From NCBI RefSeq assembly GCF_003790525.1, contig NZ_CP033635.1: a stretch of 64,000 nucleotides of DNA; one strand, given 5' to 3'. Numbering within the stretch: position 1 is the first letter of the stretch; every line of letters starts with the position of its first letter. The DNA is from Escherichia coli (GTDB lineage Bacteria; Pseudomonadota; Gammaproteobacteria; Enterobacterales; Enterobacteriaceae). The notes beneath the pieces were generated by a model, which saw only the letters and a program-made list of their open reading frames with translations, ran no database searches and was not told where the DNA came from. This document shows, piece after piece, positions 22,697 through 56,016 of this stretch. A program made the position numbers and the translations under genes.

Positions 22697-22861
22697 GCCT
22701 TATCTCCACCTCTTCGCGTCATTACGCGGTATTCATTAAAGTGGCGAAAGCATGACAGCAATCACAAAAAAATGAAAATAACAAAAAGAGAAAACACTTT
22801 TGCCATTTTGCTAACAAACAGGAAGGAGATGCGAGGGAGAACGCGCTCCCTCGAGAGGAAA

Positions 22862-22951
22862 TCAGTGCAGCGCGGCAGTCAAACCCACGGCCACGATCAA
22901 ACCGAGGACGATAATCGTTGTTACCAGTGAAAATTTAAGGTCGGTGCTCAT
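22862..22951 (-). CDS. ynhF: 29-aa small membrane protein
   Basis: ATG 22951 with AAGGAG RBS 7 nt upstream; translation MSTDLKFSLVTTIIVLGLIVAVGLTAALH, stop TGA 22862..22864; below the ORF-track size cut-off; matches the YnhF I recall; hairpin 22832..22853 follows. Confidence 0.7.
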   Translation of the reverse strand: MSTDLKFSLVTTIIVLGLIVAVGLTAALH

Positions 22952-23189
22952 CAAGTTTTCTCCTTTTTTATTACCACACAAAAAGTGATATTACGCATTT
23001 TTACACACTGTGATGAAAAAATCTCCCGTCATTTATAATGATAAGTGTTTTTACCACTTCCCCTTTTCGTCAAGATCGGCCAAAATTCCACGCTTACACT
23101 ATTTGCGTACTGGCCATTGACCCCTTCCTGACGCTCCGTGTCGTTTTTCCGGCGTACCGCAACACTTTTGTTGTGCGTAAGGTGTGTAA

Positions 23190-23205
23190 AGGCAAACGTT
23201 TACCT
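23190..23205. promoter_or_regulatory. PurR operator O1 (AGGCAAACGTTTACCT)
   Basis: 16-bp match to pur-box core GCAAACGTTT, 45 bp upstream of purR ATG. Confidence 0.6.
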
Positions 23206-23249
23206 TGCGATTTTGCAGGAGCTGAAGTTAGGGTCTGGAGTGAAATGGA

Positions 23250-31840: not shown

Positions 31841-31917
31841 GCGTTCATAGCTCAGTTGGTTAGAGCACCACCTTGACATGGTGGGGGTCGTTGGTTCGAG
31901 TCCAATTGAACGCACCA
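31841..31917 (+). tRNA. valV: tRNA-Val (anticodon GAC)
   Basis: 77-nt cloverleaf: GCGTTCATAGCTCAGTTGGTTAGAGC D-arm, anticodon loop CTTGACAT, GGTTCGAGTCC T-arm, encoded CCA. Confidence 0.95.
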
Positions 31918-31921
31918 TCCT

Positions 31922-31998
31922 GCGTCCGTAGCTCAGTTGGTTAGAGCACCACCTTGACATGGTGGGGGTCGGTGGTTCGAGTCCACTCGGACGCACCA
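31922..31998 (+). tRNA. valW: tRNA-Val (anticodon GAC)
   Basis: second 77-nt copy 4 nt after the first (GCGTCCGTAGCTCAGTTGGTTAGAGC...ACGCACCA); weak hairpin plus T-run follows at about 31995..32030. Confidence 0.95.
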
Positions 31999-32106
31999 GA
32001 TTTTCTTAATCTGGTCTTCTCCTTTTTTCCCTCTGTTTCTTCTCTGTATCCAATACGTTAAAAGATTTACACTGTCTTCGTATGCGTTATCAGTAGGAGA
32101 ATCGCT

Positions 32107-32412
32107 ATGGCAACTTTGTTACAACTTCATTTTTCTTTCAATGGCCCATTTGGCGACGCAATGGCTGAGCAGCTTAAACCTCTTGCTGAGTCGATTAATC
32201 AGGAACCTGGTTTTCTGTGGAAGGTATGGACAGAAAGTGAAAAGAACCACGAAGCCGGTGGGATCTACCTTTTTACTGATGAAAAAAGCGCCCTTGCCTA
32301 TCTGGAAAAACATACTGCCCGACTGAAAAATCTCGGCGTTGAGGAAGTTGTCGCCAAAGTTTTCGATGTCAATGAGCCACTGAGTCAAATCAATCAGGCA
32401 AAACTCGCCTGA
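32107..32412 (+). CDS. ydhR: putative monooxygenase, small ABM-like protein
   Basis: 101 aa [32 protein letters not shown]... recognised as YdhR. Confidence 0.88.
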
Positions 32413-49418: not shown

Positions 49419-49787
49419 CTATACCCCAAAGCTTTCGCCACAGCCACATTCATTCTGGGCTTTAGGGTTGTGAAATTTGAATATCTGATTAAGTCCTTCA
49501 CGAACGAAATCGACTTCCGTGCCATCAATAAACGGCATCGCTTGCAGCGGGACAAACAGCTTCGCACCGTCGTGTTCAAACAGCAGATCGTCTTTGTCCG
49601 GCTCGCTAACACTGTCGAGCACATAGCCAAAGCCCGCGCAGCCCGTTTGCTTCACGCCTAAGCGCACGCCGACCATACCCGGCTGCTTTGCCACCAGCTC
49701 GCGGATGTGGACAGCGGCTGCGGGTGTCAGCGTTAAGCCCTGCCAGGCGAAATCCTGTGGATTAAAGGTTCCTGAATGCATGTCCAT
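49419..49787 (-). CDS. sufA: A-type Fe-S carrier SufA
   Basis: 122 aa [37 protein letters not shown]..., C-terminal CGCGESF. Confidence 0.95.
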
Positions 49788-49831
49788 CGATTTACCTCAC
49801 TTCATCGCTTTCAGCGTATAACAGCATGTTA

Positions 49832-49848
49832 GTGATAATGATTATCAG
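49832..49848. promoter_or_regulatory. Fur box (GTGATAATGATTATCAG) in the sufA promoter
   Basis: strong match to Fur consensus GATAATGATAATCATTATC, 45-60 bp upstream of sufA start. Confidence 0.65.
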
Positions 49849-50079
49849 TTCAACCCAGCAAACGCAGGGGCTTTACCGTAAAACATGCTTTTTTCCTGCT
49901 TTTAATAAGCATAGACCCTGATGTGTGGGTTAACAGGCACGCTAAGAATTAGGTATCTCATTGTTAGATAATGATTATTATCTAAGGAGCATTAAGGCTG
50001 TGATGAAAAAGAAAAAGTTGTATTGAAAATGACTATTTAAGAGATAGGTAAAAAAGTGCAGCGTTCAGAAATAAGAAAA

Positions 50080-50110
50080 CCCTTAAGTCTGTGCGACACA
50101 GGCTTAAGGG
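50080..50110 (-). terminator. long hairpin with minus-strand U-tract; possible 3-prime end of sRNA RydB or other minus-strand transcript
   Basis: cccttaag(tctgtg-cga-cacagg)cttaaggg; on the minus strand the stem is followed by TTTTCTTATTTCT. Confidence 0.45.
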
Positions 50111-50335
50111 TTTCTACCCCATCCGGCGCTTATCTCCGGCACTCTCAGTGGCTTAGCTCTTGAAGGGGCGATAAGAATAATCTCATAAAGCTAACCCGCC
50201 GTTTTAACACAAACTGCGATTAGTATTATTTTTGAACAATATCAGGCGGGTAGATAAGCAGTATTAAGAAGGCCATCGAACCTGGACGGAGATTAATCCA
50301 GGTCGATATGGCGAACTTGCGGCATTAAGTCAGGA

Positions 50336-50524
50336 TCAATGCACGCCCAGACGCCAGGCAAAGTAGATTTCTTCTTTTAATTCAGCAGAAGAGAGAGTAA
50401 GCAGGTCAGCAAATTCAAGTTCTAGTTGTTTCAGACGTTTGAGATATTGGGCAGGTGAAAGATTGCTCTGGTCACGGCGTAAAAATTCAATGGCCAGCTG
50501 GGTGGGATCAAGTTGAGTAGACAT
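50336..50524 (-). CDS. ydiH: uncharacterised 62-aa protein
   Basis: ORF 50336..50605; start placed at ATG 50524 with GAGGA RBS (MSTQLDPTQLAIEFLRRDQSNLSPAQYLKRLKQLELEF...), 62 aa. Confidence 0.8.
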   Translation of the reverse strand: MSTQLDPTQLAIEFLRRDQSNLSPAQYLKRLKQLELEFADLLTLSSAELKEEIYFAWRLGVH

Positions 50525-50623
50525 AGCATCCTCGCTTTTAGACAAGACCTGCACAGTATACCACCGTTTACTGTGCAGATAATGACCAAAAGCAATATGC
50601 GTCACACTTTTCTGGTGACAACG

Positions 50624-51034
50624 TCACAAAATGGCGGTCGTCAATCGTGACGAACAGCACAAACGCCCTTTCTCATCGAAGATTTCAATCTGCCAGACCT
50701 GGTGACGCGAACCGAGATGCAACGGTTTGCATACGCCGCGCACCCGCCCTTCTCGTGCCGAGCGGACGTGGTTAGCATTGATTTCCAGACCAACCACCTT
50801 TTGCTCACCTTCGGTACATAAATAACCGGCAACGGAACCGATACTTTCGGCCAGCACCACAGACGCGCCTCCATGCAGCAACCCGAAAGGCTGCTTTGTC
50901 CGGGAGTCTACTGGCATTGTCGCTTCAAGGGTGTCATCACCAATATGTTCAAAGCGAATATCCAGCAACCCCACCATGTTTCCTTCACCCATAGCATTCA
51001 ATGCTTCCAGGGTGATTTTTCGTTTCCATATCAT
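50624..51034 (-). CDS. menI: hotdog-fold thioesterase (1,4-dihydroxy-2-naphthoyl-CoA hydrolase)
   Basis: 136 aa ORF MIWKRKITLEALNAMGEGNMVGLLDIRFEHIGDD...; start overlaps ydiJ stop (ATGA). Confidence 0.9.
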   Translation of the reverse strand: MIWKRKITLEALNAMGEGNMVGLLDIRFEHIGDDTLEATMPVDSRTKQPFGLLHGGASVVLAESIGSVAGYLCTEGEQKVVGLEINANHVRSAREGRVRGVCKPLHLGSRHQVWQIEIFDEKGRLCCSSRLTTAIL

Positions 51035-55617: not shown

Positions 55618-55774
55618 TGTTAACCCCTGCTAATTGATATTTGCTTGCTCTTCCCCATATTTTCCTGCTTACCGCCATTCAGCTGGTAGTACCTGTCGCA
55701 AATTCTTTACAGTTTTTAAACTAATGAGACGAATCTGATCGACGCAAAAAGTCCGTATGCCTACTATTAGCTCA

Positions 55775-55880
55775 CGGTTATAAATCAACATATTGATTTA
55801 TAAGCATGGAAATCCCCTGAGTGAAACAACGAATTGCTGTGTGTAGTCTTTGCCCATCTCCCACGATGGGCTTTTTTTTA
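55775..55880 (+). ncRNA. rprA: RprA small regulatory RNA
   Basis: ACGGTTATAAATCAACATATTGATTTATAAGCATGGAAATCCCCTGAGTGAAACAACGAATTGCTGTGTGTAGTCTTTGCCCATCTCCCACGATGGGC + T8 matches the RprA sequence I recall. Confidence 0.9.
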
Positions 55881-56016
55881 ACATTTTTCCGCTTCGCCAC
55901 CTCGCCCCTCACGCTTTCCAATAATGTTGCACAAGATACTGTGACTCTCTTCAAGCCGTCAGCAGGCTGATAATGTTATTTATATTTTATTGTTTATTTC
56001 ATGCAGCCATTACACG

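Follow-up and report, generated by a model that had tools for sequence, protein, structure and literature searches.

The interval between ydiH and sufA in Escherichia coli holds pronounced inverted repeats and raises the question of which RNA they belong to, and of where that RNA begins and ends. It was analysed within a stretch of 64,000 nucleotides of E. coli contig NZ_CP033635.1 (hereafter the window), whose minus strand carries, in this order, ydiJ, menI (50624-51034), ydiH (50336-50524), sufA (49419-49787) and sufB. The original prediction, made from the sequence alone, had interpreted a long hairpin in this interval as the terminator of a minus-strand small RNA and had tentatively assigned it to RydB, a small RNA annotated between sufA and ydiH in K-12. 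The K-12 rydB annotation (b4430, 68 nt; 1764713-1764780) indeed lies between both genes and on their strand. What occupies the interval is rydB, an E. coli small RNA gene that is already known, plus its Rho-independent terminator hairpin, and nothing in it is new. The features that frame it are as follows.

50336..50524, minus strand: ydiH coding sequence, 62 aa, Pfam YdiH (PF15930); annotation, open reading frame list and Pfam.
49419..49787, minus strand: sufA coding sequence, the downstream neighbour of rydB; annotation and open reading frame list.
50181..50114, minus strand: K-12 GenBank rydB feature (b4430, 68 nt), mapped by alignment.

The identity of RydB is a matter of observation. Comparison with the Rfam model, one of the checks proposed beforehand, gave a match of RF00118 (rydB) at 50169..50109 on the minus strand that spans model positions 1-61 of 61 and scores 81.6 bits (E = 9e-18) against a curated cut-off of 50 bits, and the match was reproduced under looser filters. 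A permissive Rfam scan of 49780-50640 returned, besides rydB, one weak below-threshold match at 50533-50594. Positions were converted through an alignment in which the K-12 position equals the window position plus 1714599. Between 50250 and 49975, a segment that includes RydB, its terminator and its predicted promoter, the K-12 sequence does not differ from the window. The wider stretch 49790-50340 is 99% identical to K-12 and 100% identical to several complete genomes, e.g. SMS-3-5, and is present in 5421 of the 5426 complete E. coli genomes. The gene is single-copy in the species (median of one place per genome), and a search for a second rydB copy in E. coli found none.

At the annotation level, in the E. 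coli genomes shown (H1-H23) the RefSeq pipeline has either ydiH alone or no feature at all where rydB matches, and K-12 alone carries an ncRNA feature for rydB among the records compared. A reader relying on annotation only would meet an unexplained structured gap. For the neighbouring ydiH, the mechanical open reading frame (50336-50605, minus strand) opens with a GTG and encodes 89 aa, and the annotated protein and its Pfam domain comprise 62 aa from 50524. The rydB gene has been known since 2001; its original description, by Wassarman et al. in that year, reportedly included a northern band of about 60 nt and an effect on an rpoS-lacZ fusion. Other structured RNAs were also matched in the window. 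RprA is found at 55774-55881 on the plus strand (118.5 bits), and the enterobacterial small RNA STnc550 gives a full-length Rfam match at 22859-23249 on the minus strand (396 bits). Two tRNA genes lie on the plus strand (31841-31914 and 31922-31995), the second of which is overlapped by an Rfam 'HPnc0260 antisense RNA' match (31960-32123, minus strand) that looks driven by the tRNA complement.

With regard to the terminator, the long imperfect hairpin proposed at 50080..50110 was recovered in a repeat search as the main inverted repeat of the interval, with arms of 17 nt each (50077-50093 and 50097-50113) that are 94% complementary and enclose a 3-nt loop. It begins about 223 nt downstream of the ydiH stop codon (50336-50338), close to the 230 bp given originally, and is followed on the minus strand by the U-rich tail that had been foreseen.

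50077..50113, minus strand: intrinsic-terminator stem-loop AAACCCUUAAG-C-CUGUG UCG CACAG-A-CUUAAGGGUUU; repeat search, folding and sequence.
50079..50067, minus strand: U-rich tail UUUUCUUAUUUCU, in the context GGG-UUUUCUUAUUUCU-G; sequence.

The minus-strand RNA of the hairpin reads AAACCCUUAAGCCUGUG-UCG-CACAGACUUAAGGGUUU and runs on into the tail as far as 50067. Folded alone, it reaches -22.0 kcal/mol, whereas shuffled versions average -9.2 (z = -5.53) and 0 of 200 were as stable. An A-tract lies on its 5' side and UUUUCUUAUUUCU on its 3' side. The tail has 10 U in 13 nt, the first four contiguous (four U, then C, UU, A, UUU, C, U), and its first three U (50079-50077) also pair with AAA at 50113-50111. 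The hairpin starts at the very next base after the mapped end of the K-12 annotation, and both the GenBank feature and the Rfam model exclude it. It is absent from the list of a consensus terminator scan, an omission that we read as a limit of the scan more than as counter-evidence, since the scan rule as stated makes no provision for mismatches and the E. coli stem has one internal C.A mismatch.

The ends of the RNA can be placed from published maps. In Romero et al. 2014 (PMC4681348, Table S5), 'rydB (tpe7)' is listed as a species of 104 nt (1762690-1762794) and a species of 64 nt (1762730-1762794) in U00096.2 coordinates. By applying an offset of +1976 from U00096.2 to the current K-12 sequence, verified with RprA (same table, same window), these species convert to window positions 50067-50171 and 50107-50171, respectively. 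Both have a common 5' end, and the longer one stops on the final U of the tail (50067). In Sittka et al. 2008 (PMC2515195), rydB of Salmonella LT2 is annotated at 105 nt. The Term-seq tables of Adams et al. 2021 (PMC7815308) call one rydB 3' end, K-12 1764708, which corresponds to window position 50109 in all three supplement occurrences and which has no other called end beside it from 1757702 to 1791935 in the two Term-seq tables shown. With 2.2e6 and 4.1e6, it scores 12-50 times as high as the lpp terminator does in these tables (0.08-0.18e6). This end is the second C of AAACC^CUUAAG, within the 5' arm of the hairpin. No Term-seq end is called in the U-tract (K-12 1764666-1764679; window 50066-50080) in the listed tables, which implies that the terminated form must be rare or short-lived. 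A discrete minus-strand transcript ending at about 50066..50080 had been expected, and the expectation holds for the 104-nt species (PMC4681348) but not for the Term-seq ends in the listed tables (PMC7815308). These data delimit the following RNAs.

50171-50169, minus strand: RydB 5' end and predicted transcription start; RNA-seq 5' end U00096.2 1762794 = 50171, Rfam start 50169.
50171..50109, minus strand: mature RydB core, about 61-64 nt, with P1 (GCCCC/GGGGU), P2 and hairpin P3 (CCGGAGAUAAGCGCCGG); Rfam, Term-seq and the 64-nt species.
50171..50067, minus strand: putative primary rydB transcript, about 105 nt; the 104-nt species and the Salmonella 105-nt annotation.

The bounds assigned to rydB accordingly differ between sources: GenBank gives 50181..50114, Rfam 50169..50109 and RNA-seq 50171..50067 and 50171..50107, with the Term-seq 3' end at 50109. 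The K-12 GenBank feature is off the measured ends by about 10-12 nt on the 5' side and 5-7 nt on the 3' side. Its 5' end (50181) lies within the predicted -10 hexamer and has probably been placed some 10 nt upstream of the true one.

The 3' end of the abundant mature RydB is not that of the terminator, and the dominant species is devoid of the terminator hairpin. Most likely, termination at the hairpin yields a precursor of about 105 nt that is subsequently trimmed to the structured core of 61-64 nt; that the 104-nt and 64-nt species are related as precursor and product is what we infer from these ends. The cut at 50109 falls 2 nt inside the stable stem, or 5 nt when the A-U extension is counted, and a cut inside a stable stem would not be expected of a single-strand-specific enzyme. 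The trimming may be due to a double-strand cut by RNase III in the 17-bp stem, or to an initial cut followed by 3'-5' trimming to a folded or protein-bound core. In the main text of an RNase III cleavage-map paper, rydB is unmentioned. A main RydB species that ends inside its own terminator stem makes this locus a clean test case for the removal of terminator hairpins from small RNAs. It is also observed that the P3 loop GGAGAUAAG (50129-50137) is complementary both to CUUAUUUCU in the tail (50067-50075) and to CUUAUCGCC in the 5' flank (50167-50175), and that it pairs with the tail in the predicted fold of the long form. Both complementarities are probably coincidental: the tail sequence is peculiar to Escherichia, and transcription probably misses most of the 5' flank.

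Conservation of the hairpin was followed in loci carrying an exact 20-mer (GTGCCGGAGATAAGCGCCGG), taken from one genome per species among the matches listed. The 20-mer occurs in at least 120 stretches; among the matches listed, 117 are family copies, or 118 when the window's own copy is added. Two Bacteroidales MAGs and one Proteobacteria MAG bear the exact 20-mer without any other rydB feature and were set aside as apparent chance matches. An alignment (A2) of 27 distinct sequences with a CCCUUAAG-type hairpin, from Escherichia, Citrobacter, Salmonella, Leclercia and Silvania, reveals that 6 of the 17 pairs of the terminator helix have changed on both sides while 92.6% of cells are paired across these five genera. 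The covariation score of the whole structure is 0.152, in comparison with an average of 0.093 in shuffles (0 of 500 reach 0.152) and at most 0.065 with slid partners. In 14 of the 27 sequences, a standard pair takes the place of the C.A mismatch of E. coli. Between genera, the outer arms CCCTTAAG/CTTAAGGG are almost invariant and the inner stem varies with pairing kept. A hairpin with a U-run is located within about 90 nt of the core in 84 of the 117 scored family copies among the matches listed, so that a core followed by a terminator constitutes the usual layout of the family; in other genera these post-core hairpin-plus-U terminators are unrelated in sequence. The claim that the hairpin is the Rho-independent terminator of a minus-strand small RNA is thus sustained by the Rfam match, the K-12 annotation, the end of the 104-nt species at 50067 and the covariation of the stem.

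The family extends well into the Enterobacterales, as the taxa among the matches listed include Klebsiella, Raoultella, Enterobacter, Kosakonia, Phytobacter, Mangrovibacter, Pantoea, Erwinia, Mixta, Rouxiella, Hafnia and Sodalis. Each of the 16 variant loci tested reaches the Rfam rydB cut-off or better, including two copies within one locus. P1 is 99.1% paired in the 27-sequence set, with two pairs changed on both sides, and its closing stem appears in more than 10 different complementary versions across the 118 copies among the matches listed. P2 and P3 are invariant and therefore neither support nor contradict the fold, and the long unpaired stretches of the core never change. On its own, the RydB core folds no better than its shuffles (z = +0.44), though P1 covaries.

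Several copies depart from this general picture. Two copies each are present in Rouxiella aceris, R. badensis, R. silvae, Serratia sp. M24T3, Sodalis sp. dw_96 and Pantoea agglomerans HJS002, and three in a Pantoea MAG and in an assembly labelled 'Martelella alba'. A second family sequence type (..CAGAGCUAAC(G/A)CC..) has a longer P2. Terminator-less copies occur at three loci of Serratia sp. and Rouxiella (L028, L032, L067) and at six loci of Pantoea (L022, L038, L053, L061, L093, L109). An OsmC-family gene follows the copy after about 70 nt in L032 and L067, with a sigma-S-like -10 (TCTATACTTA) between them, and L028 has the same downstream sequence; in four Pantoea loci, including L093, the gene downstream of the copy encodes a calcineurin-like metallophosphatase. 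Such terminator-less copies may be transcribed together with the downstream gene. Some taxonomic labels are doubtful: a 300-bp 'Microvirga antarctica' contig bears a Salmonella-like rydB, 'Martelella alba' contigs bear Enterobacterales-type copies, and an 'uncultured Raoultella' contig equals Citrobacter braakii exactly over the compared 118-nt rydB-plus-terminator segment. The assemblies behind L089, L072, L073 and L108 are probably mislabelled or contaminated.

Upstream of the RNA, a candidate promoter element can be recognized.

50185..50177, minus strand: predicted rydB extended -10, TG-A-GATTAT (TGAGATTAT), with TG at 50185-50184 and the hexamer at 50182-50177; sequence and conservation.

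Among 71 distinct regions upstream of RydB-type copies, 94% retain the final T of the hexamer. TGnGAnnAT occupies a single register in 39 of these regions, two of which contain an additional match further upstream, and is shifted by one base in another 16. Both 5' ends (50171 and 50169) fall 6-8 nt downstream of the hexamer; the start at about 50170 predicted from an extended -10 hence agrees with the published 5' end and with the Rfam start. TGAGATTAT would accordingly qualify, by motif and conservation, as a conserved extended -10 sigma-70 promoter of rydB, and it is absent from the list of a consensus promoter scan. Some 35-45 nt upstream of the rydB start lies a further motif, TTTGTGTTAAAA (50200-50215, minus strand), whose AAA is retained by 80-94% of the RydB-type copies from the various genera. 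The motif cannot be read as a -35 hexamer at normal spacing; it could be a binding site for a regulator.

Taken together, these observations are very probably explained by a single pathway in which rydB is transcribed from its own promoter into a terminated precursor of about 105 nt that is trimmed to RydB of 61-64 nt, the hairpin serving in addition to insulate suf. Transcription would start at about 50171-50169 on the minus strand from the extended -10 sigma-70 promoter (TGAGATTAT). Polymerase would then read the three-helix core, the 17-bp hairpin and the U-rich tail, upon which Rho-independent release near 50067 would yield the precursor. Removal of the terminator hairpin would leave the abundant RydB, whose end at 50109-50107 is 8-10 nt beyond the stem that closes the core. 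Finally, the hairpin would keep both ydiH read-through and rydB transcription out of the adjoining suf regulatory region. Several observations speak against the pathway: the U-tract is interrupted and has no called Term-seq end in the listed tables, the terminator scan did not report the site, the cut falls within a stable stem, and the core by itself is of ordinary stability.

The last of these steps touches on a reading that we consider possible but clearly less likely, and that is compatible with the pathway just described, namely that the hairpin chiefly terminates the ydiH (or menI-ydiH) transcript and insulates suf, with RydB located upstream of it by chance. The end of ydiH has a hairpin of its own.

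50312..50272, minus strand: hairpin just past the ydiH stop, devoid of a proper U-tract (CCUUCUUAAUACU); -22.2 kcal/mol, z = -3.07, stability equalled by 2 of 200 shuffles.

A second hairpin had been proposed at about 50272..50316; it does exist, but it belongs to the 3' end of ydiH and not to RydB. Its lack of a real U-tract favours this reading, and no Term-seq 3' end between ydiH and rydB is mapped for E. coli in the listed tables, so that some ydiH transcription may also stop at the rydB terminator. The ydiH 3' hairpin is kept in other Escherichia species, and other genera have unrelated hairpins or clear terminators at this place; what occupies it in Salmonella is read as a REP-like element. 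Because Citrobacter amalonaticus, Leclercia and Pseudenterobacter possess a clear ydiH terminator of their own, E. coli may use the next one downstream. The position of the U-tail, which ends just about 280 nt before the sufA start codon, also fits with this idea. Against it, a LysR-family regulator gene separates ydiH from rydB in many Citrobacter (nine loci, L004 and L006 among them, and others), yet rydB and its CCCUUAAG hairpin remain beside sufA, which indicates that the hairpin travels with rydB and not with ydiH. Likewise, family copies located elsewhere in other genera bear their own terminators. The two roles can coexist in the preferred pathway: since no other strong terminator separates ydiH from sufA, the rydB hairpin probably also halts ydiH read-through and rydB transcription before the suf regulatory region. 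The suf promoter is taken here to carry OxyR and IHF sites upstream of a core promoter controlled by Fur and IscR; under this layout the U-tail abuts the distal suf regulatory region, where a strong terminator would shield suf from a very active upstream gene.

It is improbable that the short RydB does not derive from a terminated transcript at all, its 50109 end being set by a pause or by termination-independent release and the 104-nt species representing minor read-through to the next terminator. This proposal would account for the detection by Term-seq of the 50109 end alone and for the fact that the Rfam model and the northern-based annotation end before the hairpin. However, there is no terminator-like sequence upstream of 50109, as the core is followed by UAGAAACC, which contains no U-run, and the 104-nt and 64-nt species have an identical 5' end. 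3'-5' exonucleases that trim to a structured or protein-bound core leave a short tail past the closing stem, and the 8-nt tail of RydB beyond its closing stem fits such trimming, as the precursor pathway envisages.

Still far less probable is that the palindrome acts as DNA, either as a dispersed REP-type repeat or as the site of a dimeric protein upstream of suf. Its proximity to the suf regulatory region and the near invariance of its outer arms across genera would suit a protein site, but the shift of the inner stem sequence with pairing retained points to selection on RNA structure. Dispersed extragenic palindromes of the REP class exist in many copies per genome, and this one is single-copy in E. 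coli (one place per genome at the median). In agreement with this, a paper on a REP-finding tool (PMC12306157) labels rydB as having a Rho-independent terminator (RIT), not a REP. Lastly, a cis-acting leader or riboswitch for suf, or a small-protein gene, is hardly credible: the highly conserved unpaired bases of the core recall those of aptamers and a 35-codon open reading frame exists at 50056..50163 on the plus strand, but the core has no conserved neighbour gene (only about 35 of the 118 copies among the matches listed sit near menI/ydiH or sufA in the menI/ydiH-rydB-sufA arrangement, the downstream genes elsewhere being entirely different and unrelated), the sole listed frame is antisense to RydB with a GTG start, and the only AUG of RydB opens a two-codon frame.

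At the functional level, the loss of the terminator has consequences for the way in which RydB may act. Hfq usually binds the 3' hairpin-plus-U module of small RNAs. The dominant RydB has lost its terminator, and therefore this module, as its 3' end at 50109 drops both the hairpin and the tail. In published studies, Hfq enrichment of rydB in Salmonella is weak (2.5-fold, 4 versus 10 reads; PMC2515195), RydB is grouped with Hfq-independent RNAs (PMC3933206), and no (ARN)x motif is found in it (PMC5575007). By its 3' end and by its weak enrichment in these literature data, RydB does not behave as an Hfq-dependent base-pairing small RNA, and its end inside its own terminator stem suggests that it functions without the usual Hfq-binding 3' end. 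A further study describes RydB as expressed in minimal medium and as having no known targets (PMC11230228), and other literature reports link it to rpoS expression, associate its deletion with persister phenotypes and report repression of rydB by ppGpp in Salmonella.

A broader proposal, put forward tentatively and with more doubt than belief, is that RydB belongs to a widespread and sometimes multi-copy family of structured RNAs whose active three-helix core sheds its terminator, together with any Hfq handle, and binds a conserved protein or other partner. Hints in this direction are the 20-nt segment GUGCCGGAGAUAAGCGCCGG, identical from Escherichia to Pantoea, Rouxiella, Hafnia and Sodalis, and the unpaired bases that stay invariant while the closing stem covaries freely. 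The two or three copies of some genomes, the very high Term-seq signal of the mature form, and the variable 3' context, which includes terminator-less copies just upstream of osmC-like or metallophosphatase genes, would also be in line with this proposal.

In comparison with known systems, the locus coincides with RydB (RF00118; b4430; aliases tpe7 and IS082) of K-12 in its position, its flanking genes and the sequence of the RNA and terminator. There is no biological difference between them, and only the database boundaries depart from the measured ends. Like canonical Rho-independent terminators with a 5' A-tract, the rydB terminator consists of a stem-loop with a covarying stem and a 3' U-run, the first U residues of which pair with a 5' AAA. 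It differs from them in that the stem is long (17 bp), with an AU-rich middle and one mismatch in E. coli, in that the U-run is interrupted, and in that the major cellular 3' end lies inside the 5' arm instead of the U-run. RprA, encoded in the same window, resembles RydB as an independent small gene with its own promoter and a stem-loop followed by a U-run; whereas the Rfam model of RprA includes the terminator hairpin and the U-run, the dominant RydB species has shed its terminator.
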